Shown here piece after piece: positions 18,958 through 64,000 of a stretch of 64,000 nt of DNA; within the stretch, counting starts at the first letter, position 1; each line of letters opens with the position of its first letter. The notes under the pieces were generated by a model. The model saw nothing but the letters and a program-made list of their open reading frames with translations. It searched no databases and was not told the DNA's origin. The stretch is from Heptranchias perlo (taxonomy: Eukaryota): contig NC_090353.1 of assembly GCF_035084215.1 (NCBI RefSeq), positions 35,774,001-35,838,000 of the forward strand, read 5' to 3'. The translations under genes and the position numbers were made by a program.

Positions 18958-21900
18958 ATGCAGAGATTTTTCTGTGCCTCTATCGGAATAAACCATCTCA
19001 GGGCCTTCCTGCTGTTGTGTCTGATGATCGTGATAATCCAGGTGGCCATGAAGGCTCTGTCTCCCGCTCGGCAGAGAGATCACTGCGGAAAGCAGGACGT
19101 TGAGGAGACTGCGCGGCTGGGCAGGGAGGTCAGGCAGCTCCAGAAAGAGAACGGGCACCTGAGGAAACGGCTGGTGAATTTGGAGGCCAATGCCGAGAAG
19201 CTTACGCGGCTCGATCGGATCCGGGAGGAGGCCAAGCGGGAGGAGGTGGTGAGTCACAAAGAATTGGCCCCGGGGGAGGGTGGGGTGTGGGGGTGCCGCC
19301 TGAGACCATCTCAGGAGAGAGGCCAGCCGTGTTTCACCAAAGATACAGAATGTGGAGTGAGAGAGAGAGAGAGACTCACCTACTCCTCTCACCTCTCTCT
19401 GATTTAACATTAAACCGCGGCACAAAATCCAGGCTGATACTTCCAGTGCCAGCACTGAGGGAGTGCAGCACTGTCGGAGGTGCCGTCTTTCAGATGAGAT
19501 GTTAAACCGAGGCCTCGTCTGCCCTCCCAGGTGGACATGAAAGATCCCACGATCACTATTTCGAAGAAGAGCAGGGGGGTTCTCCCCGGTGTCCTGGGGC
19601 CAGTATTTATCACTCAACCAACATCACTTAAAACAGATTATCTGGTCATTATCACATTGCTGTTTGTGGGATCTTGCTGTGTGCAAATTGGCTGCCACGT
19701 TTCCTACATTACAACAGTGACTACACTTCAAAAAAGCACTTCATTGGCTGTGAAGTGCTTTGGGGATGTCCTGAGGTTGTGAAAGGCGCTATATAAATGC
19801 AAATTCTTTCTCTTCTTTTTGTACTCCCAGGGATCTTGCCTCCCAGAAGAATTTACTGTCGAGCATTTATCATTAAAATAAAATAACTGCGCCCACCCAT
19901 CCTCCCTCCCATACTTCTCCATAGCGACTGTAATCCTCTATAGCGACCGTACTTCATGTGTGATCCTAGACAGTGAGTCGGTAGGTTGTTCTACCATGGG
20001 GTGCATCGCAGCCAAGCCTGATATCCAGACACACACTCACAGAATCTTCAGCGGGGTTCCCTAAACCACTTTGCTATTTCCCTCCCCATCATTATAAGCC
20101 TCTTCTCAACTACACTGCCAGGGCATTTTATTATTGTTACTCCAATTCCGGCCTCTTGCCCATTTCCCCCCCCAACTCCCTCCTACCCACCACTGGCGGC
20201 CATGCCTTCAGCTGCCTGGGCCCTGAGCTCTGGAATTCCCTCCCTAAACCTCTCCGCCTCTCTACCTCTCCCTCCTCCTTTAAGACGCTCCTTAAAACCC
20301 ACCTCTTTGTCCTAATATCTCCTTGTGTGGCTCGGTGTCAAATTCTGTTTGATAATCGCTCCTGTGAAGCTCCTTGGGGACGTTAAAGGCGCTATATAAA
20401 TGCAAGTTGTTGTTGTACGGGCTCTATGCAAAGTGCATGCTGTTGTTGAATGGTTGCACTCTGCGTGGTGCATTTACCCACAGAGTCACCAGGACAGTTC
20501 CCCCTCTCCCTCCCCATTGGTGAGTTTTAAAAAGTCACGTTTTTAAGGGGTCTTTCGTTAACTGACCACACGTTGCCGACTCGATCATTTCACTTGCCTG
20601 TGCGGCGGGTCGGTGCTCGTCGGCGATCCTGGCTCATTGTCCCATAGTGCCTGAAAAAGACAACGACAACTTGCGTCTATGCAGCAATATTGGTAACACT
20701 CAGCTTCTGCTCACAACCAACAGTCATACAGTAACTCACCAGTAGTCCACGTGTAACTGGTAGTAATAAGTGTAACACCCAGATGTTTCCACTTGTGGGG
20801 GAGACCAGAACTAGGGGCCATAAATATAAGATAGTCACTAATAAATCCAATAGGGAATTCAGGAGAAACTTCTTTACCCAGAGAGTGGTGAGAATGTGGA
20901 GCTCGCTCCCACAAGGAGTAATTGAGGCGACTAGCCTAGATGCCTTTAAGGGGAAGCTGGATAAACACATGGGGGAGAAAGGAATAGAAGGATATGCTGA
21001 TAGGGTGAGATGAAGTAGGGAGGGAGGAGGCTCGTGTGGAGCATAAACACCAGCACAGACCCGTTGGGCCGAGTGGCCTGTTTCTGTGCTGTACATTCTA
21101 TGTAATTCTATGTAATATCCTATCAATAACGAGTAGTAATCCTATAACCCACTGATATTCACCCTGAAACCACAGCCAGAATCCCTCTGCACTGCACAAA
21201 CTGCAGTCAGGCTCCCCAGTCAATGCCACCTTTAACAGGCCCCATCTCCTTGGACTCTGGTTTGGTCTCGGGTTCCGTGTGAAGGTGACGAACTCTGAAC
21301 CGGGAGCCTCAGTCAGAGCCGATCCGTACTTGAAGTTCACACGTTAAAACCGTCCGGCACAGACCGACCTGACCCTAACTGAGAGATCGCACCAAGGGCA
21401 GAGGGCTGGGTGATTGGGGCACTGCTCACAGGGCACATTGTCCTAAATTCAGCTCATCACCAACATTTCTAAACCATTCCCTGGGCTCGGACTCAACAGA
21501 ATGATAGAAATTACAGCATAGGAGGAGGCCAATAGGAGGATGGGCTCGGAAAGTCCAGAGCCAATCCAAGCCCATCGATGACCCAAGTTCCATGAAGCAT
21601 TTCAATCTCTCTCAGCCCTTTTAATTCTACCATTTATGAGCTGAGGAGAAACTCCCCATCTCACCTTCTCCAGAGGAGCCCCCCGATATTCTGTGCACTG
21701 TCTCCACTCGATGATCAGTAACCCTGTAGACCCACCCTTCACGCCCATCCAAGCTGCTCAATGTCAAAGAATGAGCTGGACTCTGTGAGTCCTCAAACGG
21801 TAAAATGGCCTGAGCTTTGTAAGACACTCAGTGTGTGTATCTTTACACTGTCCCATCAAACACTCCCAGGGCAGGTACAGCACGGGTTAGATACAGAGTA

Positions 21901-24900
21901 AAGCTCCCTCTACACTGTCCCATCAAACACTCCCAGGGCAGGTACAGCACAGGTTAGATACAGAGTAAAGCTCCCTCTACACTGTCCCATCAAACACTCC
22001 CAGGGCAGGTACAGCACGGGTTAGATACAGAGTAAAGCTCCCTCTACACTGTCCCATCAAACACTCCCAGGGCAGGTACAGCACGGGTTTGATAAAGAGT
22101 AAAGCTTCTTGAACACTGTCCAATAATGTGGCTTAATCCCAAGCCTCAGACCAATGCCCCTACAGCACCTGTATGGCATTTTGATCAATTTGGGATTAAT
22201 TTCTGCCAAAATACAGGCAGGCGTTAGATACAGAGTAAAACTCTGCCCAATAGAAACTAGATTAGGGTTTCCCCAAACTCACGTCCCTCAGGATACTGAT
22301 AGTCTGGGGACATTTTCATTCCATCAGCCTAGGCTGGGATCAAACTCCATCCCTGAAGTGAGAGAACAGCGGGGAGACAAATTGCAGATATTGTCTAAGG
22401 CTGTTCTTTTTGAATGTCTTGTTGTCACGTAGAGTGAGCTCAGTCCTTCCTCCTGGGTCTTGTCTCACTGCGTTGTCCATCTTTCCCAAAGGGACCGGAC
22501 AAAAAATTTAGTGATGTCTCATTTTTTTTTTGTGGTGTTTTTAATCTTTTTAAACAGATGTCCCTGCAGGGGAAGATCACAGTTCAGGAGAACACCATCG
22601 CAACCTTACAGAACCAGAGCAGGGACCTGAGCAACAAAAACACTAAACTGCAAGGTCAGTACAGCAACAGCAACAACTTGCATTTATATAGAGCCTTTAA
22701 CGTAGTAAAACGTCCCGAGACGCTTCACAGGAGCGATTATCAAACAAAATGTGACATCAAGCCATATGAGGAGATATTAGGACAGGCGACCAAAAGCTTG
22801 GTCAAACTGGTAGGTTTTAAGGTGCGTTTTAAAGGAGGAGAGAGAGATAGAGAGGCGGAGAGGTTTAGGGAGGGAATTCCAGAGATTGGGACCTAGGCAG
22901 CTGAAGGTATGGCCGCCAATGGTGGAGTGATGGAAATCGGGGATGCGCGAGAGGCCAGAATTGGAGGAGCGCAGAGATCTCGGAGGGTTGTGGGACTGGA
23001 GGAGGTTACAGAGGTATGGAGGGGCGAGAGCCATGGAGGGACAGACTCGCGGATAGAACCCTCCAAGATCCATCGGCCAAATCGCTGCTCTTTATTTTGG
23101 ACACGGATCCCCACTCACAGCGAGGGAAAGAATCTCCAACCAGCCCACTCCAGGGATTCCTGTTTCTGTAGAATAAACCTGGCCAAATTGGACTGAGGAA
23201 AATTGCCAAATTGGAATTGCAGAGATTCCCATTCCCAGTGACCCCTGCAGGACGCCTGAGGACATCAGGCTTGGCTGTGATGCCCCCAAGGTTGAATAGC
23301 CTATTGACTCTCACTATCTGGGCTCAGGCACCAAGAATGGGCAACTTTGGGGTGCTATTTGATCCATGTGGAACTATTATCCCATCAGTAGAGGATGGGT
23401 GAGAATTAGAATCATAGAATGGTTACAGCACAGAAGGAGGCCATTCAGCCCATCGAACCTGCGCCGGCTCTATGTAAGAGCAATCCAGTTAGTCCCATCC
23501 CCTGCTCTTTCTCCATAGCCCTCGAAATTCTTTCCCTTCAAGTATTTATCCAATTCCCTTTTGAAAGCCACGATTGAATCTGCTTCCACCGCCCTTTCAG
23601 GCAGCACATTCCAGATCATAACTACTCGCTGCGTAAAAAAGCTTTTCCTCGTGTCGCCTTTGGTTCTATTGCCAATCACCTTAAATCTGTGTCCTCTGGT
23701 TCTTGACCCTTCTGCCAATGGGAACAGTTTCTCTTTATTTACTTTATCTAAACCCTTCATGATTTTGATCACCTCTATCAATCTCCTCTCAAACTTCTCT
23801 GCTCTAAGGAGCACAACCCCAGCTTTTCCAGTCTATCCACGTAACTGAAGTCCCTCAACCCTGGAACCATTCTAGTAAATCTTTTCTGCACCGTCTCTAA
23901 GGCCTTCACATCTTTCCTAAAGTGCGGTGCCCAGAATTGGACACAATACTCCAGTTGTGGCTGAACCAGTGTTTTATAAAGGTTCATCATGATTTCCTTG
24001 CTTAGGAAAAAAGAAATAAAGGCTTTAACTGACTCAGACCCCTGCTTACTTTGTCTACGATTTCAACAGGTCTTTATTCTTACTTTATCAGATGTTCTTC
24101 AACATTGGGAAGTGAAGTTCTCCGATCTGGAAGAGAAACAAGAAAACCAGGAAGAGGAACTTAATAGAGCGACTAAACGTCTGGATGAGAAGCAGAGAGA
24201 AGTTGAAGAGTGGATTGAGAATCACTCGAGGCTGAATCAGCAACTGTAAGAGGCTGTGTTTTTGCAAGATAAAGTTTTATGTTGAGAAACGTTGGTGAAA
24301 GGCTCGAGGCCCGTCAATCGGGACGCAGCAGCAAGAAAATGGAGACTCAGATATGTACTTGCAAAGGAAAATTTCACTAAGGGGAAGGAGCAGGGGGGAG
24401 TGGGACTAATTGGAAAGCTCTTTTAAAGAGCTGGCACAGGCACGGTGGGCCGAATGGCCTTTCTCCGTGCTGTATGATTCTATGAGAGAAGATGAGGTAA
24501 AAGACAGAAAGACTTGCATTTATATAGCGCCCTTTCACGACCTCAGGACACCCTAAAGCGCTTCATAGCCACTTCACGTTTTAAGTGTAGTCACTGTTGT
24601 GATGTAGGAAACGCTGCAGCCAATTTGCACACAGCAAGATCCCACAAACAGCAATGAGATAATGACCAGATAATCTGTTTTTAATTATGTTGGTTGAGGG
24701 ATAAATATTGGCCCAGGACACCAGGGTGAATTCCCCTGCTCTTCTTCAAATAGTACCATGGGATCTTTTATGTCCACCTAAGAGGGCGGACAGGGCCCTC
24801 GGTTTAAAGTCTCATCAGAAAGACAGCACTCCCGGCAGTGCAGCACTCCCTCAGTACTGGCACTGAAGTGTCAGCCTGGATTATGGGCTCAAGTTACTCT

Positions 24901-27321
24901 GGAGTGAGGCTTGAACCCACAACCTTCTGAGTCAGAGGTGAGAGAGCTACCCACTGAGCCAAGCTGTAGTTGACACCAGGCTGGATAAGCCACCAAGAGT
25001 TAGAAGGGTAAAAATTTACCCAGGCCTGTGTTTGGGATCCAGAATCAGCTCTGCACAGACCCCCAAACCGGCCGGCCTGAAATTGAGCCTTAAAACGGGC
25101 ACAGCGAGGTCCAATTTCTACCCTGAGTCTTCAAGATCAGAAAACAATTTATTCCAGTGCATACTGACCCCCTACTTGACTCCAGGTGGGTTTAAAAACC
25201 TTACGATTGTCAGAGAAAGCGAAGACTGAGGGAAGTTAGGGGTACCATAGTTTTGAGGTGCTGGGAAAGAATAATGAGCTTGAGTGGGAGGCACTGTGAT
25301 ATCAACACATTGAGGAATCAGGGAGGAGGAAGGGTGTGTAGGACAGGGGGTTTGGAGATTAGAGGGAAGAAGAGTGGAAAAGTTATCGGAGCAATGACCG
25401 TAGCGTCAATGACCGTAGCGACAATGACCGTAGCGTCAATGACCGTAGTGTCAATTACCATAGCGACAATGACCGTAGCGACAATGACCATAGTGTCAAT
25501 GTCCATAGCGTCAATGACCGTAGTGTCAATGACCATAGTGTCAATGACCGTAGCGACAATGACCGTAGTGTCAATTACCATAGCGTCAATGACCGTAGCG
25601 ACAATGACCATAGCGACAATGACCATGACGAACTCTGGATTCTTTTACCCTCAGTCTGGTTCAGCAAACACTGAGTCGAATACACCTTTAAAGTTCAACA
25701 GAATTTTATTATCCGCGGGGCTTAGTCTATAGTATCGACATTGACTCCTGACAGAGTCTTGTCAAGTCCAATAGAGCAAGCAAGGTTCCATACAGAGGTT
25801 TACACATTTATACAGTTACAACAGGACTATGAGCATGATTAACAATGATCAACACCAATCATAAGCGGTTCATGTGTAGGCCATGCCTAGGTTACATGAG
25901 GGCAGGCCAATCACAGGTAGTACACGTGCATGATCATGCCGCGGTTACAACAAGAGAGGGATGCATCCTTATCTCCTAACTACGGAATGTTCCTTCGGCC
26001 TTGTACTGTTATTGCTTAACTTCAGAATGTTCCAGCTGCACAGATACCCCAACCAGACCCCTAATCTTATCAAGTCTTGTCAACTGTTGAGACATCACAG
26101 GACTTACACATAAAGAGCTAAGCACACAAACATGAGGCCGAAAAGGGGCCCATTGTTCTACTTCTAGCTAGTAGGCTACTAACTAACTGTTGCTTAACCG
26201 CAATGCTACTTGACAAGTAGGTATTCTACTGAAAGATTGCCACGTAGGCATTCTCAACCATAGCGTCAATGACCGTAGTGTCAATTACCATAGCGACAAT
26301 GACCGTAGTGTCAATGGCCATCGCGTCAATGACCGTAGCGTCAATGACCATAGCTTCAATGACCGTAGCGACAATGACCGTAGCGTCAATGACCGTAGCG
26401 GTGTCAATAAAACCAAGATGAGAAAGACTACAATACAGAAGGAACTTGCATTTATGTAGCGCCTTTCATCTCCTCAGGATGTCCCACAGTCAACTAATTA
26501 CTTTTGAAGTGCAGTCACTGTTGTTATGTAGGCAATCCCGGCAGCCATTTTCAGACCATGATTCCACAAACAGAAATGAAATGCAAGACCAGTTAATGTG
26601 TTTTTGGAGATGTTGGATGAGAGAGGCATATTGACCAGGACACCGAGAAAACTCACCGCTCCTCTCTGAAATATTGCCATGGGATAGCACTCCCTCAGTA
26701 CTGCACTGGAGTATTAGCCCAGACAATGTGCTCACGTCCTGGAGTCAGACTGAACACACAACTTTCAGACCCAGAGGCAAGAGTGCTACCAACTGACAAC
26801 TAAAGGAATTAATGGAGGGCATCAGGAAAGGGTTTAATAGTGGAGATGTGATTGATGGATGAATATTCTGAAGTTTTGCTCAATCCCCTTTGAGCAGCAG
26901 GGAGTGTTTAAACAGAACTTTCCCTTCGGAAGTTAAATGAGTGGCTCGAGTCCATGATAGGGTAACGTGTACATAAGGTATAGAAGGGGATTAAATGGGT
27001 GGGTAGAGTCCATCAGAGGGTAGAGTGTACATTGGCTATGGGAGAAGATTAAATGGGTGGGTAGAGTCCATGACATGGTAGAGTGTTCACAGGCTGTGGG
27101 AGGAGTGGGCGGATGGCCTTTTCTCGTTCTGTGTTTTACGTTCCTATCATTCTTAATATTGAAAATAAATTCTGACTTTGTCTTAATTTACTTCTTACAG
27201 AAACAAGTGTTGGAATCAGCCAGTTAGGTATCATGGAGAATGCAGTTGGTTCACCGTTTTGATTGGCATTGGTGGTTCTTGCCTGGGTTTCGGGTCATGC
27301 TCTAATAATAAATGCAGTTAA
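18958..27321 (+). CDS. Tetherin/BST2-like TM-coiled-coil protein, gene A; join(18958..19248,22558..22654,24092..24245,27201..27321), 220 aa
   Basis: Exon 1 MQRFFCASIGINHLRAFLLLCLMIVIIQVAMKAL...REEV (TM then heptads) ends at gtg|GTGAGT (phase 0). Exon 2 follows tttaaacag| and encodes MSLQGKITVQENTIATLQNQSRDLSNKNTKLQ, ending G|GTCAGT (phase 1). Exon 3 follows ctttatcag| and encodes DVLQHWEVKFSDLEEKQENQEEELNRATKRLDEKQREVEEWIENHSRLNQQ, ending CT|GTAAGA (phase 2). Exon 4 follows cttcttacag| and encodes LNKCWNQPVRYHGECSWFTVLIGIGGSCLGFGSCSNNKCS*. All phases are compatible; sequons NQS and NHS are present. Confidence 0.72.
21843..22121. repeat. 67-bp tandem repeat (about 4 copies)
   Basis: TACACTGTCCCATCAAACACTCCCAGGGCAGGTACAGCACGGGTTAGATACAGAGTAAAGCTCCCTC, period 67. 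Confidence 0.9.
23408..23995 (-). mobile_element. CR1 fragment in intron 2; copies ~39036-39623 and ~54899-55486
   Basis: Minus-strand ORFs LYKTLVQPQLEYCVQFWAP... and FFTQRVVMIWNVLP with a frameshift; ATTCTATG tail. Confidence 0.85.
25391..26400. repeat. 15-bp minisatellite CAATGACCGTAGCGT split by a solo LTR; duplicated in units 2 and 3
   Basis: Arrays at 25391-25625 and 26257-26400. Confidence 0.9.
25626..26256 (-). mobile_element. Solo LTR (631 bp) with 4-bp TSD ACCA; copies 41254..41884 and 57117..57747
   Basis: acca|TGACGAA...TTCTCA|acca interrupts a 15-bp minisatellite. Minus-strand TATA-like motif near 25810 and AATAAA near 25705; CCAAT boxes present. Confidence 0.75.
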
Positions 27322-27646
27322 CGGTGAGTAACCGATAAAGAACAATCAGTGGAAACGGTACCCAGTGTGCCTTGAGGAACGGGGGGAGAGGGAGGGAGGA
27401 GAGAGTGGGAGGGAGTGAGGGCAGGGAGGGACAGAGAGGGGGAGGGAGGGAGAGGGAGAAAGGGAGAGGCGGGAGAAAGGGAGGGGGAGGGACGGGGGAA
27501 AGGAGCGAGGGAGGGAGAGAGGAGAAGGGAGGGGGAGAGGTGGAGGGAGGGGACCGTGGGAGGAAGGAGGGATGGGGAGGTGGGAGGGTGAACTTGGGGA
27601 AGGGGAGAAAAAGCATTTTCAAAAACCTTTTCCTTATGTTGTACAG

Positions 27647-27790
27647 GACTCCGCCAAAATCCTGAGATGATGAAGTGGAACCGTCAACATGCAGAGATGG
27701 AGCAAACACTCCTGTGCCAAGAGATTGAGGCACTGTTGATTGGAGGAAGAAACTATGGTTCTGAGTCTCTGGGTAGCGATCCTCAATAAA
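27647..27790 (+). other. Putative terminal (3' UTR) exon 5 with polyadenylation signal; repeated near 43275 and 59138
   Basis: Donor cg|GTGAGT lies 2 nt after the exon-4 stop (27324). Acceptor ttccttatgttgtacag| precedes 27647. AATAAA at 27785-27790. Confidence 0.5.
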
Positions 27791-30498
27791 AAAACAAACG
27801 CAAACCTGCTTCTCTGTGACACGAATGGGAAACAAGATTCTTGTCCGTTACAACGGGAAGATTGTCCAGTGATGATATCGGAGTTGGTGGCTTTTCACTA
27901 AAGTTCAGATTCTCTTGGTTGCCAAACACCCTCTGGGAGGTTGTCACCCTCCCTGTCCTGTCCCACGTATCTTCATATTAAAAACTGAACCCTTTGTTTT
28001 GAAGAAGTGATGTTGGGCTGGTGATAACTGAGATCTGTAGCACAGGGCGGTTTCAGCCAAACTGGTTCAAGTAACAGTGACAGACAACAGCCTGCCCTAG
28101 AGTTAATATGAACGTCCGAGAGACGGAATGAGAAAAGGCCACTCAGTACATCAGTCTCACTCCTTCCACGGTCCATGTACACTCTACTCCATCACGGACT
28201 CTACCCACCCATTTAATGTCACGGAATGAGAAAAGGCCACTCAGTACATCAGTCTCACTCCTTCCAAGGTCCATGTACACTCTACTCCATCACAGACTCT
28301 ACTCGCCCATTTAATCTCCTCCCATAGCCCATGTAATGTCTACCCCATCATGTCAATGAATCAATCATTCTTTCCCAGTGTCTTAAGACTGTGACACTTC
28401 CTCACCCACCTCAATCCACCCTTCCTGCCTGCAGTCGACAGAATTTTAAAACCTAAGTTGACGTCCATTAACTACTGGACAACCCCTCTGCTCCTTCTCC
28501 TCCCTCCATGGTGTTGTGACCTGCACCCAGAGTCTTGGGCCTCTCAACAAAATCAGGGATTAATTACACAATTGACAGATGCCTCCAATTGGCAAAAAGG
28601 TTGCCTTGACGACATGGTAAGGGGAGGGGATCAATTTTACATTACTACTATTTGATTTCACTGGGGGTTTTTTTTTGCTATGACGGTTAGTGAGCTTGAA
28701 TAACACTGGGTGTTGAGGCTCAGAAACGTGGATTGGTTGGATTTTGCCAGCCTTTGTTTCACCGAGTCCTACACGAGGTTATAATGACCAGAAATGTCTA
28801 TCAGTATTTTTTTTTAGCAAAACATAAGATGTTATCCAGGAACCGAAAAAAAGTCAAAGAAAAGAATCTGACTTTTGCTTCTGTAACAGTTGGTGATGGA
28901 TTTAAGTGATGGGAAGCACTGGGATTTGACACTCTGTAAAGTGGGAGTTGTTACTGCTCCCCCACCCCTCTGATGTACATAGGAACAGGAGCAGGCCATT
29001 CAGGCCCTCAAGCCTGTTCCACATATTTATTGAGTGAGATGTATATTTGTTTCTCAAGAAAGACTAGAGAAGCCGGGATTGTTCTCCTTGGAGCAAAGAT
29101 GGTTAAGGGGAGATTTAATAGAGGTGTTCAAAATTATGAAGGGTTTTGATAGAGTAAATAAGGAGAAACTGTTTCCACTGGCAGGAGGGTCGGTAACCAG
29201 AGGACACAGATTGAAGATAATTGGCAAAGAACCAGGGTGATGATAAGGAGAATTTTTTTTACACAGCGAGTTGTTCTGATCTGGAATGCGCTGCCTGATA
29301 GGGCGGAGGGAGCAGATTCAATAATAACTTTCAAAAGGGGAATTGGATAAATACTTGAAAAGGAGACATTTTCAGGGCTGTGGGGAAAGAGCAGGGCAGT
29401 GGGACTAATTGGATAGCTCTTTTCAAACGGCCAGCTCAGGCACGACGGGCCAATTGGCCTCCTTCTGTGCCGTAAGATTCCATGATAGTTTGTACTAATC
29501 CAGAGACCAATTAACTTAACACCAAATGAATTGTGTGTCTATATCTTTAATATAATATTTCTGTGCATATTTGCAATAAAATATAACAATAAAACCAACT
29601 CTGGTGCCAAGTGAACAGATTTTGTTGCTTCCACTGGTCTCCAGATGAAACTCCAGTCATTCCGAAATCACATCCTGATCGGAGCAAAGCACGTGCCAGA
29701 GACACAGCGATCTGTGACTCCATGGGGTAATGTTCCAGCTTCAAGCTGCAGATTTGCGTTTGCCTGCAAGTAACAGAAACTCAGCACTTGTGGTTTACAA
29801 TTTTCTGACCACTCATTTTTAAATGTTTGAAAAACTGCGCAGCACATGCCCAAATTTCTGATTTGCGTTCCCAGTGAGCAAGGCAGTAAATCAACCCTCA
29901 AAAATAGATCATTGGGACCCCTCGATTACATTCGTTATTCTATATATAAAGCCCCCAAACCCTTTGGATAGATTCTCGCCTCAAGGACCTTGACCAGGGA
30001 GCCATTCCTCACGTGTGAGTCTGGACAGTGAGTGTCCAGATCCTAGGAGTGCAGAGGGCGCTCTGGAGAAAGTTGCCCTCACTGAACGCCCTACTTGTGT
30101 AGGATCTGTCGGGGTTATTGGACACCGAGCCACAGTGGGAGATCCTGCTGCTTTCCCCCCCTCCCCTTGCCCTGGAGCACAATGTAGGACCCTCACTACT
30201 GTGGTGGCTGAGATCAGCCACTTCTGCGCAGTCCAGTGGATTGAGCCCGGAACCTTCTTACTCCGCATGGCTTGGCATTGCACTGGCTCGTGCGTTTTCC
30301 AGCTGAGCCATTGGAAGGGGGAGATTGAACTTTCGATAATCTTTCACATTCAGGTCCTATTTCAATCTGAAGATGTGCGAACAGCAAGGTGGGAAATAAC
30401 GGAGAGCAATAAGCAGTTTCAGAAGGATTTAAAACTTTTAGGAAGTGGGCCAGTAGATGGCTGATGTCGTTCAATGTGAATAAACACAAATAATTAAA

Positions 30499-30673
30499 GC
30501 CCTGATTTCAACCTAACCCACCCAGTGAGAACCGGGAAGCAGTCGGGTCAGGCGCCAGATTTACACTGCACCTATTGGGGTCAATCAGGCGTAAAATCGG
30601 GTGGAGAGTGAATCGCCCGTCTGACCCGAACACGCCTTGATTCTCGCCTGGTCGGTTAGGTTGAAGTCGAGGC
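30499..30673. mobile_element. Short MITE-like inverted-repeat element; copies ~46185 and ~62047
   Basis: gccctgatttcaacctaacc ... ggttaggttgaagtcgaggc imperfect terminal inverted repeats. Confidence 0.4.
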
Positions 30674-31780: not shown

Positions 31781-31798
31781 AGATTGATTTAGCGAAAA

Positions 31799-51900: not shown

Positions 51901-54459
51901 CAGCCTGTGCTGACTTAGCTCATCTCAGCCTAGGTCAAGTCAAGAGCAAAACAACAATTAGTCTTCCTGCTCTAGGGGTTCTGAAGAGGGTTAAAAAAAA
52001 ATCAGCCTCGATTGCCGCCCCTGATGGGCATCTGGCGCCAATTTTAACAGTAGGTGCACAACAGGTCCTCCTATAGTTACTCACGTGACGCCTTTTGAAA
52101 GTTATTACTGAATCTGCTTCCTCCGCCCTTTCAGGCAGCGCAATCCCGATCATAACAACTCACTGCATTAAAAAAAATTCTCCTCATCTCCCCTCTGGTT
52201 CTTTTGCCAATTACCTTGGCCAGGATTTTGACCCGGAGCCGGGAAGGAGGCGGAGGCGGGGTGGGGGTCGAAACGCGGATGGAGACCCGGAAGTACGGGT
52301 TTGCCGGACACCCTTACAATTTTTTTTGTTGGTTTGCCGTCCGACAGGCCGGCCTGATTGACAGGCTGACCTCAGTCAGACCGGAGCAGAGCAAGGAAGA
52401 GGATATGAAAGGGTAAGAGTTCAGGTAAGTCTTGGATTGTATCGAATGGGGGGGGTGGGGGGGGTGGGCATGGGTGAGCATGGGGGCACCGGGGGCATGG
52501 AGCAGAGGGCACCAGGGGCACATGGGTACGGGGGCATCGGTGGGCATGGGGGCAATCTACACCTACCTGCTCTTTCCAGCAGAGGTCCCTGGGTAAAGAT
52601 CAGGAGCAGGAACCCCTGGGTTGATTTTATTACTCTCCCTAACTCAGGGGAACGGTGGCCATTAATAGTGTCTCAACTGTAGACTAGGGGTGGGAGGGGC
52701 TGAAACCTGGGAATTTCCTGATCCGTGTTAGCTCAGTGCCACATACTTTATATTGAATTTCAGACCCCCTCCATCCCACACAATATTATTCTTTGCCATG
52801 GCTCGATACCATGGACGCAGTTCATTAAAACAAGCTCAAATTACAAGCTCTAAAAACAAAAACACTCACAACTGCAACATGATTTTCCAGTCAGACTTGC
52901 TGCCTAACTGCATTGGTGTGGTTTTATTTTTGTTGAAACCCTTTGATCACACTGGTAACGCTATGACTTGCTTTTGGTCTTTGCCCTACTTAAAACGAGA
53001 AATGAATCTATCTTCTCAGGACCCCGACTGGGTTCAGATCAATTCGGTTTCTGTCTCTCCAGGCAGAGAAACATGGATTACTCACCAAAACGGGTTAACT
53101 CATTCTTTTGTCAGGATCTGGACTAGTGTTGGGGAGGGAGGGGCAACTAGGTGTCAGCTGTGGCTCTGTGGGCAACAATTCTGAGTCCGATGGTTGTGGG
53201 TTTAAATCCCACATTAGAGACTTGAGCACAAAATCTAAGCTGTCACTCCTGGTGCAGCACTGAGAGAGTGCTGCACTGTCAGAGGTGCCGCCTTTTGGAT
53301 GAGACGTTAAATCAAGGCCCTGTCTGCCCTCTCAAGTGGACGTAAAGGGTCCCACGCCATTATTATGAGGGAGAGCAGGTGAGTTCTCCCCGGTGTCCTG
53401 GGGCCGATATTTATCTCTCAACCAACATCACTAAAAATACAGATTATCTGGTCATTATCACGTTGCTGTTTGTGGGATCTTGCTGTGCGCAAATTGGCCT
53501 CTCTGTTTCCTACATTACAACAGTGACTACACTTCAAAAGTACTTCACTGGCTGTAAAGCGCTTTGGGACGGCCTGAGGTTGTGAAATGTGCTATATAAA
53601 TTCAAGTCTTTCTTTCCTTTCCATTTTTCTTAAAAATACCAAAACAAAAACAATTCTGGAAAGACTGGGTGGAACTCTGTGCTGGAACCGGGCTTCAAGT
53701 CCAGCCCAGACCGATGGGTGAAATTCTCCTCTGTCTGCTGGTTTTAAAGGTCAATGTTGATTGGCCAGACTCAACCCAATTCTCTGTGGTCACCAAGCCC
53801 ACAGCACAGAATGGCTAGTGTAGGAAATGGAAAAGTAGTGGATGTTAAGGTTAGGGCTGAGACATTGTTCAGATAGTGTAGAGGGAGCTTTACTCTGTAT
53901 CTAACCCTGTACCTGCCCTGGGAGTGTTTGACGGGACAGTGTAGAGGGAGCTTTACTCTGTATCTAACCCTGTACCTGCCCTGGGAGTGTTTGATGGAAC
54001 AGTGTAGAGGGAGCTTTACTCTGTATCTGACCCTGTACCTGCCCTGGGAGTGTTTGATGGAACAGTGTAGAGGGAGCTTTACTCTGTATCTGACCCTGTA
54101 CCTGCCCTGGGAGTGTTTGATGGAACAGTGTAGAGGGAGCTTTACTCTGTATCTAACCCGTGCTGTACCTGCCCTGGGAGTGTTTGGTGGGACAGTGTGG
54201 AGAGAGATTTACTCTGTATCTAACCTGTGCTGTACCAAACCGTTTGGTGCTAACAATGAGCGCCCAAAATGAGGAAGTGTTTCATCTCTCAGCAATGAAC
54301 CTTGATAAGCACAAAAATTCACAAACTACTTGTGACGTATATATTTTTTTTCCAGGTTGCCCTGAGTGAGAACATTGTCACATTAGAGAAGAAGCTAAAA
54401 GATCTTGAACTCCTCAATACCAACCTGAACAATGAACAAGAGCAACTGAAAGGTTAGAG
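38597..54459. repeat. Tandem segmental duplication unit 2 (15,863 bp)
   Basis: Offset 15863 to the next unit (38634 to 54497); same junction ggttagag|gcgcagagatct. Confidence 0.95.
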
Positions 54460-57400
54460 GCGCAGAGATCTCGGAGGGTTGTGGGACTGGAGGAGGTTAC
54501 AGAGGTATGGAGGGGCGAGAGCCATGGAGGGACAGACTCGCGGATAGAACCCTCCAAGATCCATCGGCCAAATCGCTGCTCTTTATTTTGGACACGGATC
54601 CCCACTCACAGCGAGGGAAAGAATCTCCAACCAGCCCACTCCAGGGATTCCTGTTTCTGTAGAATAAACCTGGCCAAATTGGACTGAGGAAAATTGCCAA
54701 ATTGGAATTGCAGAGATTCCCATTCCCAGTGACCCCTGCAGGACGCCTGAGGACATCAGGCTTGGCTGTGATGCCCCCAAGGTTGAATAGCCTATTGACT
54801 CTCACTATCTGGGCTCAGGCGCCAAGAATGGGCAACTTTGGGGTGCTATTTGATCCATGTGGAACTATTATCCCATCAGTAGAGGATGGGTGAGAATTAG
54901 AATCATAGAATGGTTACAGCACAGAAGGAGGCCATTCGGCCCATCGAACCTGCGCCGGCTCTATGTAAGAGCAATCCAGTTAGTCCCATCCCCTGCTCTT
55001 TCTCCATAGCCCTCGAAATTCTTTCCCTTCAAGTATTTATCCAATTCCCTTTTGAAAGCCACGATTGAATCTGCTTCCACCGCCCTTTCAGGCAGCACAT
55101 TCCAGATCATAACTACTCGCTGCGTAAAAAAGCTTTTCCTCGTGTCGCCTTTGGTTCTATTGCCAATCACCTTAAATCTGTGTCCTCTGGTTCTTGACCC
55201 TTCTGCCAATGGGAACAGTTTCTCTTTATTTACTTTATCTAAACCCTTCATGATTTTGATCACCTCTATCAATCTCCTCTCAAACTTCTCTGCTCTAAGG
55301 AGCACAACCCCAGCTTTTCCAGTCTATCCACGTAACTGAAGTCCCTCAACCCTGGAACCATTCTAGTAAATCTTTTCTGCACCGTCTCTAAGGCCTTCAC
55401 ATCTTTCCTAAAGTGCGGTGCCCAGAATTGGACACAATACTCCAGTTGTGGCTGAACCAGTGTTTTATAAAGGTTCATCATGATTTCCTTGCTTAGGAAA
55501 AAAGAAATAAAGGCTTTAACTGACTCAGACCCCTGCTTACTTTGTCTACGATTTCAACAGGTCTTTATTCTTACTTTATCAGATGTTCTTCAACATTGGG
55601 AAGTGAAGTTCTCCGATCTGGAAGAGAAACAAGAAAACCAGGAAGAGGAACTTAATAGAGCGACTAAACGTCTGGATGAGAAGCAGAGAGAAGTTGAAGA
55701 GTGGATTGAGAATCACTCGAGGCTGAATCAGCAACTGTAAGAGGCTGTGTTTTTGCAAGATAAAGTTTTATGTTGAGAAACGTTGGTGAAAGGCTCGAGG
55801 CCCGTCAATCGGGATGCAGCAGCAAGAAAATGGAGACTCAGATATGTACTTGCAAAGGAAAATTTCACTAAGGGGAAGGAGCAGGGGGGAGTGGGACTAA
55901 TTGGAAAGCTCTTTTAAAGAGCTGGCACAGGCACGGTGGGCCGAATGGCCTTTCTCCGTGCTGTATGATTCTATGAGAGAAGATGAGGTAAAAGACAGAA
56001 AGACTTGCATTTATATAGCGCCCTTTCACGACCTCAGGACGCCCTAAAGCGCTTTACAGCCACTTCACGTTTTAAGTGTAGTCACTGTTGTGATGTAGGA
56101 AACGCTGCAGCCAATTTGCACACAGCAAGATCCCACAAACAGCAATGAGATAATGACCAGATAATCTGTTTTTAATGATGTTGGTTGAGGGATAAATATT
56201 GGCCCAGGACACCAGGGTGAATTCCCCTGCTCTTCTTCAAATAGTACCATGGGATCTTTTATGTCCACCTAAGAGGGCAGACAGGGCCCTCGGTTTAAAG
56301 TCTCATCAGAAAGACAGCACCCCCGGCAGTGCAGCACTCCCTCAGTACTGGCACTGAAGTGTCAGCCTGGATTATGGGCTCAAGTTACTCTAGAGTGAGG
56401 CTTGAACCCACAACCTTCTGAGTCAGAGGTGAGAGAGCTACCCACTGAGCCAAGCTGTAGTTGACACCAGGCTGGATAAGCCACCAAGAGTTAGAAGGGT
56501 AAAAATTTACCCAGGCCTGTGTTTGGGATCCAGAATCGGCTCTGCACAGACCCCCAAACCGGCCGGCCTGAAATTGAGCCTTAAAACGGGCACAGCGAGG
56601 TCCAATTTCTACCCTGAGTCTTCAAGATCAGAAAACAATTTATTCCAGTGCATACTGACCCCCTACTTGACTCTAGGTGGGTTTAAAAACCTTACGATTG
56701 TCAGAGAAAGCAAAGACTGAGGGAAGTTAGGGGTACCATAGTTTTGAGGTGCTGGGAAAGAATAATGAGCTTGAGTGGGAGGCACTGTGATATCAACACA
56801 TTGAGGATTCAGGGAGGAGGAAGGGTGTGTAGGACAGGGGGTTTGGAGATTAGAGGGAAGAAGAGTGGAAAAGTTATCGGAGCAATGACCGTAGCGTCAA
56901 TGACCGTAGCGACAATGACCGTAGCGTCAATGACCGTAGTGTCAATTACCATAGCGACAATGACCGTAGCGACAATGACCATAGTGTCAATGTCCATAGC
57001 GTCAATGACCGTAGTGTCAATGACCATAGTGTCAATGACCGTAGCGACAATGACCGTAGTGTCAATTACCATAGCGTCAATGACCGTAGCGACAATGACC
57101 ATAGCGACAATGACCATGACGAACTCTGGATTCTTTTACCCTCAGTCTGGTTCAGCAAACACTGAGTCGAATACACCTTTAAAGTTCAACAGAATTTTAT
57201 TATCCGCGGGGCTTAGTCTATAGTATCGACATTGACTCCTGACAGAGTCTTGTCAAGTCCAATAGAGCAAGCAAGGTTCCATACAGAGGTTTACACATTT
57301 ATACAGTTACAACAGGACTATGAGCATGATTAACAATGATCAACACCAATCATAAGCGGTTCATGTGTAGGCCATGCCTAGGTTACATGAGGGCAGGCCA

Positions 57401-58812
57401 ATCACAGGTAGTACACGTGCATGATCATGCCGCGGTTACAACAAGAGAGGGATGCATCCTTATCTCCTAACTACGGAATGTTCCTTCGGCCTTGTACTGT
57501 TATTGCTTAACTTCAGAATGTTCCAGCTGCACAGATACCCCAACCAGACCCCTAATCTTATCAAGTCTTGTCAACTGTTGAGACATCACAGGACTTACAC
57601 ATAAAGAGCTAAGCACACAAACATGAGGCCGAAAAGGGGCCCATTGTTCTACTTCTAGCTAGTAGGCTACTAACTAACTGTTGCTTAACCGCAATGCTAC
57701 TTGACAAGTAGGTATTCTACTGAAAGATTGCCACGTAGGCATTCTCAACCATAGCGTCAATGACCGTAGTGTCAATTACCATAGCGACAATGACCGTAGT
57801 GTCAATGGCCATCGCGTCAATGACCGTAGCGTCAATGACCGTAGCTTCAATGACCGTAGCGACAATGACCGTAGCGTCAATGACCGTAGCGGTGTCAATA
57901 AAACCAAGATGAGAAAGACTACAATACAGAAGGAACTTGCATTTATGTAGCGCCTTTCATCTCCTCAGGATGTCCCACAGTCAACGAATTACTTTTGAAG
58001 TGCAGTCACTGTTGTTATGTAGGCAATCCCGGCAGCCTTTTTCAGACCATGATTCCACAAACAGAAATGAAATGCAAGACCAGTTAATGTGTTTTTGGAG
58101 ATGTTGGATGAGAGAGGCATATTGACCAGGACACCGAGAAAACTCACCGCTCCTCTCTGAAATATTGCCATGGGATAGCACTCCCTCAGTACTGCACTGG
58201 AGTATTAGCCTAGACAATGTGCTCACGTCCTGGAGTCAGACTGAACACACAACTTTCAGACCCAGAGGCAAGAGTGCTACCAACTGACAACTAAAGGAAT
58301 TAATGGAGGGCATCAGGAAAGGGTTTAATAGTGGAGATGTGATTGATGGATGAATATTCTGAAGTTTTGCTCAATCCCCTTTGAGCAGCAGGGAGTGTTT
58401 AAACAGAACTTTCCCTTCGGAAGTTAAATGAGTGGCTCGAGTCCATGATAGGGTAACGTGTACATAAGGTATAGAAGGGGATTAAATGGGTGGGTAGAGT
58501 CCATCAGAGGGTAGAGTGTACATTGGCTATGGGAGAAGATTAAATGGGTGGGTAGAGTCCATGACAGGGTAGAGTGTTCACAGGCTGTGGGAGGAGTGGG
58601 CGGATGGCCTTTTCTCGTTCTGTGTTTTACGTTCCTATCATTCTTAATATTGAAAATAAATTCTGACTTTGTCTTAATTTACTTCTTACAGAAACAAGTG
58701 TTGGAATCAGCCAGTTAGGTATCATGGAGAATGCAGTTGGTTCACCGTTTTGATTGGCATTGGTGGTTCTTGCCTGGGTTTCGGGTCATGCTCTAATAAT
58801 AAATGCAGTTAA
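47801..58812 (+). CDS. BST2: Tetherin/BST2-like chimeric gene copy 2; join(47801..48049,54356..54452,55583..55736,58692..58812), 206 aa
   Basis: Near-identical to copy 1 with the same splice sites; carries S60F (TTT at 47978-47980). Confidence 0.72.
49287..50973 (+). mobile_element. CR1-clade LINE, duplicated copy (ORF 49293..50885)
   Basis: Segmental-duplicate copy of 33600-35278. Confidence 0.95.
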
Positions 58813-61800
58813 CGGTGAGTAACCGATAAAGAACAATCAGTGGAAACGGTACCCAGTGTGCCTTGAGGAACGGGGGGAGAGGGAGGGAGGAGAGAGTGGG
58901 AGGGAGTGAGGGCGGGAAGGGACAGAGAGGGGGAGGGAGGGAGAGGGAGAAAGGGAGAGGCGGGAGAAAGGGAGGGGGAGGGACGGGGGGAAGGAGGGAG
59001 GGAGGGAGAGAGGAGAAGGGAGGGGGAGAGGTGGAGGGAGGGGACCGTGGGAGGAAGGAGGGACGGGGAGGTGGGAGGGTGAACTTGGGGAAGGGGAGCA
59101 AAAGCATTTTCAAAAACCTTTTCCTTATGTTGTACAGGACTCCGCCAAAATCCTGAGATGATGAAGTGGAACCGTCAACATGCAGAGATGGAGCAAACAC
59201 TCCTGTGCCAAGAGATTGAGGCACTGTTGATTGGAGGAAGAAACTATGGTTCTGAGTCTCTGGGTAGCGATCCTCAATAAAAAAACAAACGCAAACCTGC
59301 TTCTCTGTGACACGAATGGGAAACAAGATTCTTGTCCGTTACAACGGGAAGATTGTCCAGTGATGATATCGGAGTTGGTGGCTTTTCACTAAAGTTCAGA
59401 TTCTCTTGGTTGCCAAACACCCTCTGGGAGGTTGTCACCCTCCCTGTCCTGTCCCACGTATCTTCATATTAAAAACTGAACCCTTTGTTTTGAAGAAGTG
59501 ATGTTGGGCTGGTGATAACTGAGATCTGTAGCACAGGGCGGTTTCAGCCAAACTGGTTCAAGTAACAGTGACAGACAACAGCCTGCCCTAGAGTTAATAT
59601 GAACGTCCGAGAGACGGAATGAGAAAAGGCCACTCAGTACATCAGTCTCACTCCTTCCACGGTCCATGTACACTCTACTCCGTCATGGACTCTACCCACC
59701 CATTTAATCTCCTCCCATAGCCCGTGTACACTCTACTCCATCACGGACTCTACCCACCCATTTAATGTCACGGAATGAGAAAAGGCCACTCAGTACATCA
59801 GTCTCACTCCTTCCAAGGTCCATGTACACTCTACTCCATCACAGACTCTACTCGCCCATTTAATCTCCTCCCATAGCCCATGTAATGTCTACCCCATCAT
59901 GTCAATGAATCAATCATTCTTTCCCAGTGTCTTAAGACTGTGACACTTCCTCACCCACCTCAATCCACCCTTCCTGCCTGCAGTCTACAGAATTTTAAAA
60001 CCTAAGTTGACGTCCATTAACTACTGGACAACCCCTCTGCTCCTTCTCCTCCCTCCATGGTGTTGTGACCTGCACCCAGAGTCTTGGGCCTCTCAACAAA
60101 ATCAGGGATTAATTACACAATTGACAGATGCCTCCAATTGGCAAAAAGGTTGCCTTGACGACATGGTAAGGGGAGGGGATCAATTTTACATTACTACTAT
60201 TTGATTTCACTGGGGTTTTTTTTTGCTATGACGGTTAGTGAGCTTGAATAACACTGGGTGTTGAGGCTCAGAAACGTGGATTGGTTGGATTTTGCCAGCC
60301 TTTGTTTCACCGAGTCCTACACGAGGTTATAATGACCAGAAATGTCTATCAGTATTTTTTTTTAGCAAAACATAAGATGTTATCCAGGAACCGAAAAAAA
60401 GTCAAAGAAAAGAATCTGACTTTTGCTTCTGTAACAGTTGGTGATGGATTTAAGTGATGGGAAGCACTGGGATTTGACACTCTGTAAAGTGGGAGTTGTT
60501 ACTGCTCCCCCACCCCTCTGATGTACATAGGAACAGGAGCAGGCCATTCAGGCCCTCAAGCCTGTTCCACATATTTATTGAGTGAGATGTATATGTGTTT
60601 CTCAAGAAAGACTAGAGAAGCCGGGATTGTTCTCCTTGGAGCAAAGATGGTTAAGGGGAGATTTAATAGAGGTGTTCAAAATTATGAAGGGTTTTGATAG
60701 AGTAAATAAGGAGAAACTGTTTCCACTGGCAGGAGGGTCGGTAACCAGAGGACACAGATTGAAGATAATTGGCAAAGAACCAGGGTGGTGATAAGGAGAA
60801 TTTTTTTAATGCAGCGAGTTGTTCTGATCTGGAATGCGCTGCCTGAAAGGGCGGAGGGAGCAGATTCAATAATAACTTTCAAAAGGGGAATTGGATAAAT
60901 ACTTGAAAAGGAGACATTTTCAGGGCTGTGGGGAAAGAGCAGGGCAGTGGGACTAATTGGATAGCTCTTTTCAAACGGCCAGCTCAGGCACAACGGGCCA
61001 ATTGGCCTCCTTCTGTGCCGTAAGATTCCATGATAGTTTGTACTAATCCAGAGACCAATTAACTTAACACCAAATGAATTGTGTGTCTATATCTTTAATA
61101 TAATATTTCTGTGCATATTTGCAATAAAATATAACAATAAAACCAACTCTGGTGCCAAGTGAACAGATTTTGTTGCTTCCACTGGTCTCCAGATGAAACT
61201 CCAGTCATTCCGAAATCACATCCTGATCGGAGCAAAGCACGTGCCAGAGACACAGCGATCTGTGACTCCATGGGGTAATGTTCCAGCTTCAAGCTGCAGA
61301 TTTGCGTTTGCCTGCAAGTAACAGAAACTCAACGCTTGTGGTTTACAATTTTCTGACCACTCATTTTTAAATGTTTGAAAAACTGCGCAGCACATGCCCA
61401 AATTTCTGATTTGCGTTCCCAGTGAGCAAGGCAGTAAATCAACCCTCAAAAATAGATCATTGGGACCCCTCGATTACATTCGTTATTCTATATATAAAGC
61501 CCCCAAACCCTTTGGATAGATTCTCGCCTCAAGGACCTTGACCAGGGAGCCATTCCTCACGTGTGAGTCTGGACAGTGAGTGTCCAGATCCTAGGAGTGC
61601 AGAGGGCGCTCTGGAGAAAGTTGCCCTCACTGAACGCCCTACTTGTGTAGGATCTGTCGGGGTTATTGGACACCGAGCCACAGTGGGAGATCCTGCTGCT
61701 TTCCCCCCCTCCCCTTGCCCTGGAGCACAATGTAGGACCCTCACTACTGTGGTGGCTGAGATCAGCCACTTCTGCGCAGTCCAGTGGATTGAGCCCGGAA

Positions 61801-64000
61801 CCTTCTTACTCCGCATGGCTTGGCATTGCACTGGCTCGTGCGTTTTCCAGCTGAGCCATTGGAAGGGGGAGATTGAACTTTCGATAATCTTTCACATTCA
61901 GGTCCTATTTCAATCTGAAGATGTGCGAACAGCAAGGTGGGAAATAACGGAGAGCAACAAGCAGTTTCAGAAGGATTTAAAACTTTTAGGAAGTGGGCCA
62001 GTAGATGGCTGATGTCGTTCAATGTGAATAAACACAAATAATTAAAGCCCTGATTTCAACCTAACCCACCCAGTGAGAACCGGGAAGCAGTCGGGTCAGG
62101 CGCCAGATTTACACTGCACCTATTGGGGTCAATCAGGCGTAAAATCGGGTGGAGAGTGAATCGCCCGTCTGACCCGAACACGCCTTGATTCTCGCCTGGT
62201 CGGTTAGGTTGAAGTCGAGGCGTTAATGTGGGAGCAAGGAATCGAAATCTGAAATAAAAACAGAAAATTCTGGAAACATTTGGCAAATCAGGCAGCATCT
62301 GTGGAGAGAGATACAGAGTTAATGTTTCAAGTCTTTCCTCAGAACTGGAAGAAGTTAGAGATTTAACAGTTTATAAGCAAGTATAGAGCCAGAGAAAGGG
62401 GCGGGAGGGAGGAAAGAACAAAGGAGAAGGTCTGCGATAGGGTGGAGGACAGGAGTGATTAAATGACAAAAGGGATGATGATGCAAGGCAAGGAGGGTGG
62501 GAATGGAACACGTAAAGAAGCAAAAGATGGGTCTAGAGAAGTAAATGGTTTCAGCAGAACCATTACCAGCACTTGCTGTCTGAGAAAGGGGGAACGGTGG
62601 TTATGATCTGAAGCTCTTGAACTCAATGTTGAGTCTGGAAGGTTGTAAAGTCCTTGATCTCAAGAGGAAGTGACTCAAGCTGCTGTTGAGTTTCATTGGA
62701 ACAGTGTAAGAGGCCGAGGACAGAGAGGTCAGAGTGGGAGTGGGACGGAGAATTAAAATGGCAAGCGACCAGAAGCTCAGGGTCACGCTTGCAGACTTAA
62801 CGGAGGTGTGAAAAGGTGGGTAGGTGGGATTGAAGGATATGGTGAGAAGGTGGTTAGTTGGGATTGAGGGACATGGTGAGAGGGTGGGTAGGTGGGATTG
62901 AGGGAAGTGATGAGAAGGTGGGATTGAGGGACATGGTGAGAAAATGGGATTGAGGGATATGGTCAGAAGGTGGGAGATGGGACTGGGGGATATTGTGAGA
63001 AGATGGGCAGGTGGGGTTGAGGGATAATGGGAGCAGGTGGGTAGATGGGGTTGAGGAATATGGTGAGGAGGTGGGTAGGTGGGATTGAAGGTTATAATGA
63101 GGAGGTAGGTAGGTGGTATTTGGTGAGCAGGTGGGTAGGTGAGGTTGAGGGATATGGTGCGGAGGTGGGTAGGTGGGATTGAAGGTTATAATGAGGAGGT
63201 AGGTAGGTGGTATTTGGTGAGCAGGTGGGCAGGTGAGGTTGAGGGATATGGTGAGGAGGTGGGTAGGTGGGATTCAGGGATATGGTGAGGAGGTGATGAG
63301 AAGGATATTGTGGGATTATGAGAAGGTTAGATTGATTTATCGAAAAGGGACTTTTCCTGCTCCTAAAAATTCTTAAATTCTGAAGTGTGAGTCACCTAAT
63401 AAGTCAAAGTAAGCAAGAGATTTCAGTGAGAAAAGTTCGTAACCCTGCAGGGGCTGGCTTGCTGCCACAAACTGAAATGGTTTGAATCATGTGATTTCCA
63501 GTAAATGTTGTTCTGTGGGGGGGGGGGTTTGAAGATTTATGATGATGAGAGTGATTTTCTGATAAGTAGAAACGTTTCAATACGAAGGCAGCCTGGTGTA
63601 GTACAGCTAGTGCAGAGTAGGTACAGGGACCGGTGCTGTGTGGATCAGGCGGGGCCATTCTAGATGAATAAATCTGACAGTACGATGGGTTCCTCAGGAC
63701 GCAGAGATTGTATTTTAAAATATTTGGTCGGTTTACTGAGCCTGGTGGCTTTGATTTTTTTGTCTTCGTTTGTGTATGTGATGAACTCGGACCCTGTCCT
63801 CGAGCTGAAACAGTGTGAAAAGCGACTGCAAAACGAAACGTCTATGTTAAATGAATGTGAGCAGGCACGGGGGGAGAGCCAGTCCTTATTAAACAACTGC
63901 CAGGCTCAATCGGTGAGTAGTAAAACCATCGACAGTCCGTGTGTTATTGATTCTAGTAAAGGAAGCCCTTTAAGGGATGATATTTGTTGCTAAAAGTGAA
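54460..64000. repeat. Tandem segmental duplication unit 3 (truncated by window end)
   Basis: Colinear near-identical copy of units 1 and 2. Confidence 0.95.
63664..63912 (+). CDS. BST2: Exon 1 of a further gene-B-type tetherin-like copy; continues beyond the window
   Basis: Same translation as 32114..32362 (S60), followed by a GTGAGT donor. Confidence 0.7.

Follow-up and report, generated by a model that had tools for sequence, protein, structure and literature searches.

We analysed a 64,000-nucleotide (nt) window from the genome of the sevengill-type shark Heptranchias perlo (contig NC_090353.1, positions 35,774,001 to 35,838,000) that holds four genes for proteins with a transmembrane (TM) helix and a coiled coil. 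With a probability of roughly 70%, we regard it as a shark tetherin/TMCC(aT) locus in which a tandem triplication has created two hybrid genes between two old paralogs, termed A and B, and in which B is a predicted double-anchored virus tether. One end of native B would be held by a membrane helix, the other by a glycosylphosphatidylinositol (GPI) anchor, and the protein would tether budding enveloped viruses. The hybrids would combine the tail, TM helix, three N-terminal cysteines and glycan site of B with the C-terminal half of A. A and the hybrids are probably not full tethers but TMCC(aT)-like partners with one anchor, or with a second anchor that is weak. We are highly confident that this is a locus of the tetherin/TMCC family, and moderately confident that native B tethers virions. 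Positions are numbered along the window; "extended" positions continue the same numbering past its end.

Gene structures and the tandem array

Four exon-1 open reading frames (ORFs), each with a short tail, a TM helix and heptads, had been picked out by a first-pass annotation, and they were found at 18958 (type A) and at 32114, 47801 and 63664 (type B), which gives the order A, hybrid 1, hybrid 2, native B along the locus (Table 1). In the genome, A exon 1 had one match and B exon 1 had three, every one at the locus. The introns of the spliced models are all GT-AG with phases 0, 1 and 2. As the annotation had proposed, three models lie in the window, encoding 220 amino acids (aa) for A and 206 aa for each of the hybrids at 32114 and 47801; native B, whose exons 2-5 lie outside the window, encodes 189 aa. 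The models of A, of the gene at 47801 and of native B were identical, letter for letter, to RefSeq proteins P0017, P0004 and P0003, and P0005 (206 aa, same cluster as P0004) is presumably the product of the copy at 32114. RefSeq labels these H. perlo proteins homer-3-like, leucine-rich repeat (LRR)-like and kinesin-binding-like. A filter for ORFs with a TM helix followed by a charged helix, whose thresholds were chosen with the target genes already known, passed five of 23,428 open frames in 926 kb; besides the four exon 1s, only exon 1 of PLVAP was among them. A looser version, applied to part of the region, gave 12 more matches that by eye were non-coding. A and B agree in exon 2 length (97 nt), intron phases and stop position, and their local alignment score of 94 was reached by none of 2000 shuffles. 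Judged from their sequences, A and B are old paralogs.

Self-comparison revealed three head-to-tail units, each consisting of A exons 3-5, a spacer and B exons 1-2. The units are 99.5-99.6% identical: 60 of 15,628, 76 of 15,611 and 68 of 15,741 aligned bases differed in the pairwise comparisons (0.38-0.49%), and transitions dominated (45/60, 57/76 and 44/68). Because each unit joins B exons 1-2 to A exons 3-5, the genes at 32114 and 47801 are B/A hybrids. The expanded cluster described by the first-pass annotation therefore stands as four genes, made up of two old paralogs plus a near-identical triplication giving hybrids. Four independent tetherins were considered and ruled out, as three of the exon 1s come from one near-identical array. 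Since both introns are in phase 1 and both exon 2s measure 97 nt, a hybrid stays in frame and in heptad register.

The second junction, after 54452, is identical to the first. One non-homologous join of B intron 2 to A intron 2 at microhomology may have duplicated the segment from A exon 3 to B exon 2, after which unequal crossing-over could account for the third unit and its identical junction. The short repeat at the start of unit 1, in A intron 2, is by our own label like a short interspersed nuclear element (SINE). Only two coding differences, both amino-acid changing, were found among the copies in 623 nt, too few to test selection among them. Long ORFs resembling the reverse transcriptase of a long interspersed nuclear element (LINE), which we take to be CR1-like, were also observed at 16475-18589, 33600-35195 and 49287-50882. 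They are about 98% alike, one copy lies inside B intron 1 and was duplicated along with the unit, and the very high contig depth over them indicates an abundant family.

Transcription of the hybrid was investigated with four sequencing runs from one sample, covering 32000-45400. Three runs are RNA-like and one is DNA; none is recorded as RNA, and the RNA nature of the three was judged from splice joints. GT..AG joints between exons 1-2, 2-3, 3-4 and 4-5 were confined to the RNA-like runs. The exon 1-2 joint occurred in two of the three, the third having a matching loose end, and the other joints occurred in all three. All exon joints of hybrid 1 were thus seen in RNA-like runs, which answers the annotation's call for junction evidence; its non-coding last exon was borne out as well, since the exon 5 joint was present and exon 5 is located after the stop codon. 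The joint of B exon 2 to A exon 3, which is unique to the hybrid genes, was absent from the DNA run, and A exon 2 fits the exon 2 end of this joint at only 20 of 30 letters. The exon 3-4 joint sets the reading frame of the A-type tail. Acceptor-like splice sites precede the ATG exons at 18930-18940 and 32045-32053, and in one RNA contig 25 letters ahead of 32052 could not be placed, which makes an untranslated exon further upstream likely.

Some of these data speak against the hybrids as assembled. On its B side the hybrid joint is covered by only 25-28 letters, below the 31-letter bar of the tool; every read comes from one sample; and none of the DNA contigs listed bridges the genomic junction, so that the copy number of the hybrids rests on the assembly. 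The triplication might accordingly be in part an assembly error, with haplotypes placed in tandem and fewer hybrid genes than assembled. The near identity of the units and some DNA-contig alleles that fit no single assembled unit cleanly would agree with such an error. We nevertheless consider it improbable: the three units are about equally diverged from each other, with a transition bias, the region contains no N, a junction absent from both parent genes occurs twice, and the hybrid splice is present in RNA. As an unduplicated A-then-B arrangement would not normally give that splice, the hybrid gene is very likely real in at least one copy.

Rod, dimer and C-terminal ends

In all four genes, a 19-residue segment with a hydropathy of 2.49-2.53 follows a tail of 15-20 residues, pointing to one TM helix, presumably in type II orientation. 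The hydropathy of the ectodomain has a period of 3.50-3.52 residues (3.52 in the hybrid), reached by 0/1000 shuffles for A, 1/1000 for the hybrid and 0/1000 for B. Single-sequence AlphaFold prediction of native B gave a TM helix at residues 13-41 and a long helix at 44-188, with a mean predicted local distance difference test (pLDDT) score of 85.5; the model of A likewise consisted of a TM helix and a continuous helix at 44-186. The seven ectodomain cysteines of native B are all spaced by multiples of seven (14, 14, 49, 21, 7 and 7), and the spacing 49-21-7 recurs in four of the five B-type proteins listed from other sharks, one bamboo shark protein being variant. A has one N-terminal ectodomain cysteine.

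A homodimer model of B residues 42-167 scored 0.57, against 0.00 for the best of three controls, with a pLDDT of 91 and 100% contact agreement between runs. The modelled dimer is parallel and in register, and its best contacts include 51-51, 65-65, 79-79, 128-128, 149-149 and 156-156. When solved structures are scored, 21 of 30 homodimers reach this mark and 0 of 23 monomers do; among eukaryotic proteins 17 of 29 reach it, and among those without an older solved relative only one of seven does, so that the pass of B may reflect coiled-coil memory. Native B is thus a predicted disulfide-linked, parallel dimeric rod.

The C-terminal end of the rod separates native B from the other three genes. 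Native B is hydrophobic up to its C-terminus, as are all five other elasmobranch relatives (sharks and a skate), with a hydropathy of 1.63-2.40 over the last 15 residues; on sequence, this end looks like a canonical GPI signal. The A-type tail of A and both hybrids has a best 13-residue hydropathy of 1.79, followed by eight polar residues, with a mean of -0.08 over the last 15, and AlphaFold modelled it as a low-confidence hairpin. By a simple hydropathy test, which still allows a weak TM or lipidated tail, A and the hybrids have no GPI signal. The hydrophobic segment that the first-pass annotation placed at the end of the three spliced proteins is therefore weak and followed by polar residues, and their second anchor is doubtful; the two-anchor topology it proposed is predicted for native B, which ends beyond the window. 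We think it rather unlikely, though conceivable, that the A-type tail anchors. A shifted frame of A exon 4 (27201-27323 and its copies) is more hydrophobic than the frame used, hinting that the tail could derive from an old anchor signal by a frameshift. Compared with B-type tails, no frame stands out by its score, and the RNA carries no insertion or deletion there.

Relationship to tetherin and TMCC(aT)

A HMMER search of 1.84 billion representative proteins with B returned ten hits: the query, seven other cartilaginous fish, the axolotl and one repeat protein that we treated as spurious. B-type proteins are 35-43% identical across sharks, with the layout kept. In the ESM Atlas, the top hit of native B was a BST2 cluster (0.94, 208 of 256 features), and rows at 0.91-0.92 for the hybrid included CCDC194, PLVAP and BST2 clusters; its structure listing gave long helices from bacteria that fell below the bar for naming. 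Searches of Pfam and of PDB sequences gave only generic coiled-coil rows, and the PV-1 profile (PF06637) matched the genome solely about 600 kb away and none of these genes. The A-type C-terminal half was found in no other species among the top 8000 candidates scored. Blanks in the word-index protein search carry little weight, because relatives missed there were found by HMMER.

Native B resembles tetherin/BST2/CD317 (PF16716) in its layout of tail, TM helix, coiled coil and GPI-like end, in its predicted cysteine-linked parallel dimer, in an N-glycan sequon just after the first ectodomain cysteine, in its length of 189 aa, and in lying between a CILP gene and PLVAP. It differs in having no significant sequence match, in its seven ectodomain cysteines, compared with three in the BST2 dimer (PMC2912774), and in the distance to PLVAP; A and the hybrids also differ in having no clean GPI-type end. 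According to PMC3715405, virions are trapped by any parallel dimer that has a pair of anchors at both ends, irrespective of sequence, and viral antagonists act on the TM helix, tail or ectodomain of tetherin. The origin of tetherin is reported to precede the split of sharks and bony fish (PMC6002735, citing Heusinger 2015), active orthologs have been traced back to the coelacanth (PMC5758531), and multi-copy loci are described in Myotis bats, with duplicates in sheep and cattle (PMC9599465). Given this reported age and the duplications described for bats and ruminants, a shark tetherin locus was to be expected. Among the top-ranked results of our literature search, neither a tetherin locus of elasmobranchs nor hybrid tetherin genes of sharks were the subject of any paper.

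Several results count against a tetherin identity. PF16716 was not among the matches listed for any of these proteins, a genome search with the BST2 family gave four weak matches, none of them at the locus, solved BST2 chains appeared only at E 0.4-0.85 amid unrelated coiled coils, and a Foldseek search found nothing. The profile mismatch counts little, because non-mammalian tetherins were identified by position and structure (PMC10617486). The sole HMMER relative outside the cartilaginous fish was an axolotl CCDC194-like protein (E 7.5e-4), to which the B profile aligned at 96% probability in hhalign over 103 columns; gene A compared with the CCDC194 type gave E 0.053, which is not significant.

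This alignment raises the alternative that the shark ortholog of CCDC194/TMCC(aT) is B itself, or that B is an undivided tetherin/TMCC(aT) ancestor with a GPI signal, and that A occupies the tetherin position. In the known gene order, tetherin is followed by TMCC(aT) and then by PLVAP. Searched against the H. perlo genome, the axolotl protein matched nothing but the copies of B exon 1, and these weakly (E 0.61), and the ORF filters found no other TM-coiled-coil first exon near PLVAP. B and TMCC(aT)/CCDC194 have the TM-coiled-coil layout and the tandem position beside a sister gene in common, and reptile TMCC(aT) proteins are reported to restrict HIV-1 release (PMC10617486, citing Blanco-Melo 2016). 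Yet the top ESM Atlas hit of B is the BST2 cluster, the name of the axolotl protein is an automatic label and its own end is mildly hydrophobic, and the exon 2 length, phases and stop common to A and B fit a duplication on the shark side equally well. Mammalian and short avian TMCC(aT) have no GPI signal (PMC10617486), a trait that A and the hybrids fit and B, with its GPI-signal-like end, does not; nor does any of the shark genes adjoin PLVAP. We hold this alternative to be a serious one, though somewhat less likely than not to be right; if it were, the tethering mechanism could be the same and the names would differ. Sequence and gene neighbourhood together place the locus in the tetherin/TMCC(aT) group without assigning which gene is which. 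The tetherin identity put forward by the first-pass annotation is partly supported, by topology, by the nearness of CILP, by PLVAP on the same contig and strand and by the ESM Atlas, and is qualified by the CCDC194-like protein being the only alignment outside the group of cartilaginous fish.

Sister proteins without a GPI anchor, such as sheep tetherin B and TMCC(aT), are the closest parallels to A and the hybrids; for these sisters, weak restriction, restriction by other routes or, in reptiles, full restriction has been reported (PMC9599465, PMC10617486). The duplicated tetherins of Myotis, sheep and cattle are comparable as tandem copies, some without a GPI signal (sheep tetherin B and bat isoforms) and with altered C-termini; there, duplications, deletions and splice isoforms are described (PMC9599465), whereas the new shark genes are front/back hybrids of long-diverged paralogs that arose through one duplication junction. 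PLVAP/PV-1 is a TM-coiled-coil sister family on the same contig and strand, but a separate gene.

Neighbouring genes, other sharks and significance

Non-mammalian tetherins lie between CILP2 and PLVAP (PMC10617486). Here, a CILP gene lies 77 kb upstream of the locus on the same strand, its domains ending 58.5 kb before the window, and exon 1 of PLVAP (PV-1) follows some 600 kb downstream, on this contig and strand as well, so the locus is only loosely positioned between the two. Upstream, YjeF_N and CILP exons on the same strand are followed by a small UPF0669 gene. From the YjeF_N pairing, we take the CILP neighbour to be CILP2 rather than CILP1. It argues against a classical tetherin position that PLVAP is not adjacent and that a scan of 20 frames, of which six matched, showed Ras-, PDE4- and immunoglobulin (Ig)-domain exons between it and the locus. 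The synteny with PLVAP, CCDC194 and CILP2 anticipated by the first-pass annotation is accordingly partial: a CILP gene is near and PLVAP is on the same contig and strand, but far off, and the ORF filters found no separate CCDC194-like gene. Two weak profile hits near PLVAP were rejected as repeat sequence.

Two inverted copies of an element of about 15 kb, 95-99% alike, flank PLVAP exon 1 (C32:36.420-36.465 Mb). Their open frames look retroelement-like by eye, and four that were scanned had no Pfam hit. The second copy follows PLVAP exon 1 directly, and the pair could have inverted the segment between them. Downstream of gene B, exons at L003:5099-6797 (- strand) and L013:6131-6454 (+ strand) gave no Pfam hit; we assume them to be pyroglutamyl peptidase (PGPEP1) and an MFSD14-type transporter.

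Table 1 Coordinates of the genes, tandem units and neighbouring gene described in the text (window numbering unless stated)
Feature	Position	Strand	Remarks
Gene A exon 1	18958..19248	+	Tail, TM at ~aa 16-34, start of coiled coil; single copy in genome
Gene A exon 2	22558..22654	+	97 nt, phase 0 to 1; joints assembly-based
Gene A exon 3	24092..24245	+	154 nt
Gene A exon 4	27201..27323	+	Weakly hydrophobic Cys-rich tail, stop
Gene A exon 5	27647..29593	+	Non-coding; end inferred at distal AATAAA; acceptor by homology to RNA joint 43275
Hybrid 1 exon 1, B-type	32114..32362	+	Tail, TM at aa 21-39, C51/C65/C79, N57 sequon
Hybrid 1 exon 1 joint	to 38493	+	RNA runs X6 and X7
Hybrid 1 exon 2, B-type	38493..38589	+	RNA joint
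Hybrid 1 exon 3, A-type	39720..39873	+	B exon 2 to A exon 3 joint in RNA
Hybrid 1 exon 4, A-type	42829..42951	+	Stop; no gap or variant letter in RNA contigs listed
Hybrid 1 exon 5	43275..45266	+	Non-coding; 3' end inferred from AATAAA at 45261
Hybrid 2 exon 1, B-type	47801..48049	+	One amino-acid change
Hybrid 2 exon 2, B-type	54356..54452	+	Junction 2 directly after
Hybrid 2 exon 3, A-type	55583..55736	+	
Hybrid 2 exon 4, A-type	58692..58814	+	Stop
Native B exon 1	63664..63912	+	Downstream joints sequence-based
Native B exons 2-5	70416-70512, 73249-73360, 74638-74751, 76243 on	+	Extended coordinates; equal to L001:6416-6512, L001:9249-9360, L002:638-751, L002:2243 on
Tandem unit 1	22969..38596	+	15,628 bp; starts inside short repeat in A intron 2
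Tandem unit 2	38597..54459	+	15,863 bp
Tandem unit 3	54460 to ~70522	+	16,063 bp; reaches past window end (64000)
Duplication junction 1	38590..38600	+	First B intron 2 bases joined to A intron 2, 3-bp microhomology
C6orf120/UPF0669 gene	L036:6383-7051	-	Single ORF, ~43 kb before window; Pfam E 1.5e-76

No core of an interferon-stimulated response element (ISRE) came closer than 1.5 kb to any of the four ATGs, nor did the 2.5 kb ahead of hybrid 1 contain one, a search that would miss a true promoter further upstream; this, too, tells against an antiviral role. One site like an interferon-gamma-activated sequence (GAS) precedes A, at about the chance rate, and a kB-like motif was observed at 31799. 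The proteins could instead be structural or trafficking rods, PLVAP-like or raft-organising, and the triplication a neutral copy-number variant. Such a view would agree with the missing interferon element, with coding differences too few for a selection test, and with the fact that microhomology junctions arise by chance. Against it, the divergence of B-type proteins across sharks with a kept layout is as in tetherins, topology alone suffices for tethering (PMC3715405), and N-terminal variety on a common C-terminal half recurs in the annotations of other sharks. We consider this explanation unlikely and retain the tetherin/TMCC(aT) reading.

The evidence on isoforms in other sharks consists of annotations only. 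In catshark, the consecutive RefSeq isoforms X1-X3 carry different first exons on an identical C-terminal half of 102-104 residues with a hydrophobic end. The first exon of X1 is A-type (blastp E 2e-8 to A exon 1, z 14.4), whereas X2 and X3 begin with B-type exons. In bamboo sharks, two models that come from separate annotations have 102 C-terminal residues in common and different N-termini. The first exon of bamboo shark P0011 was not significant against A exon 1 by blastp; its local score (z 5.7, 0/2000 shuffles) is a lead only. In bamboo shark P0011 and P0015, a 42-residue coiled-coil segment occurs three times ahead of the common C-terminal half and would lengthen the rod. As the catshark annotation places three first exons on one C-terminal half, the shuffling of halves may recur in sharks. 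A broader idea is that sharks diversify the tetherin locus by repeatedly recombining front halves (tail and TM helix, which viral antagonists target in mammals) with back halves (rod end and anchor), through a hybrid-forming duplication in H. perlo and three alternative first exons in catshark; we regard it as speculative and rather unlikely. If true, it would mean a variable-plus-constant restriction-factor locus maintained by conflict with enveloped viruses.

This analysis adds RNA-backed structures for genes that carry misleading RefSeq names (kinesin-binding, LRR and homer-like). An expressed hybrid of paralogs, together with isoforms having a C-terminal half in common, suggests half-swapping as a way to vary an antiviral protein whose action depends on topology. 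Because B resembles both BST2 and CCDC194, the shark sequences may help to establish when tetherin and TMCC(aT) separated, and the four natural variants in one genome make the anchor requirement directly testable.

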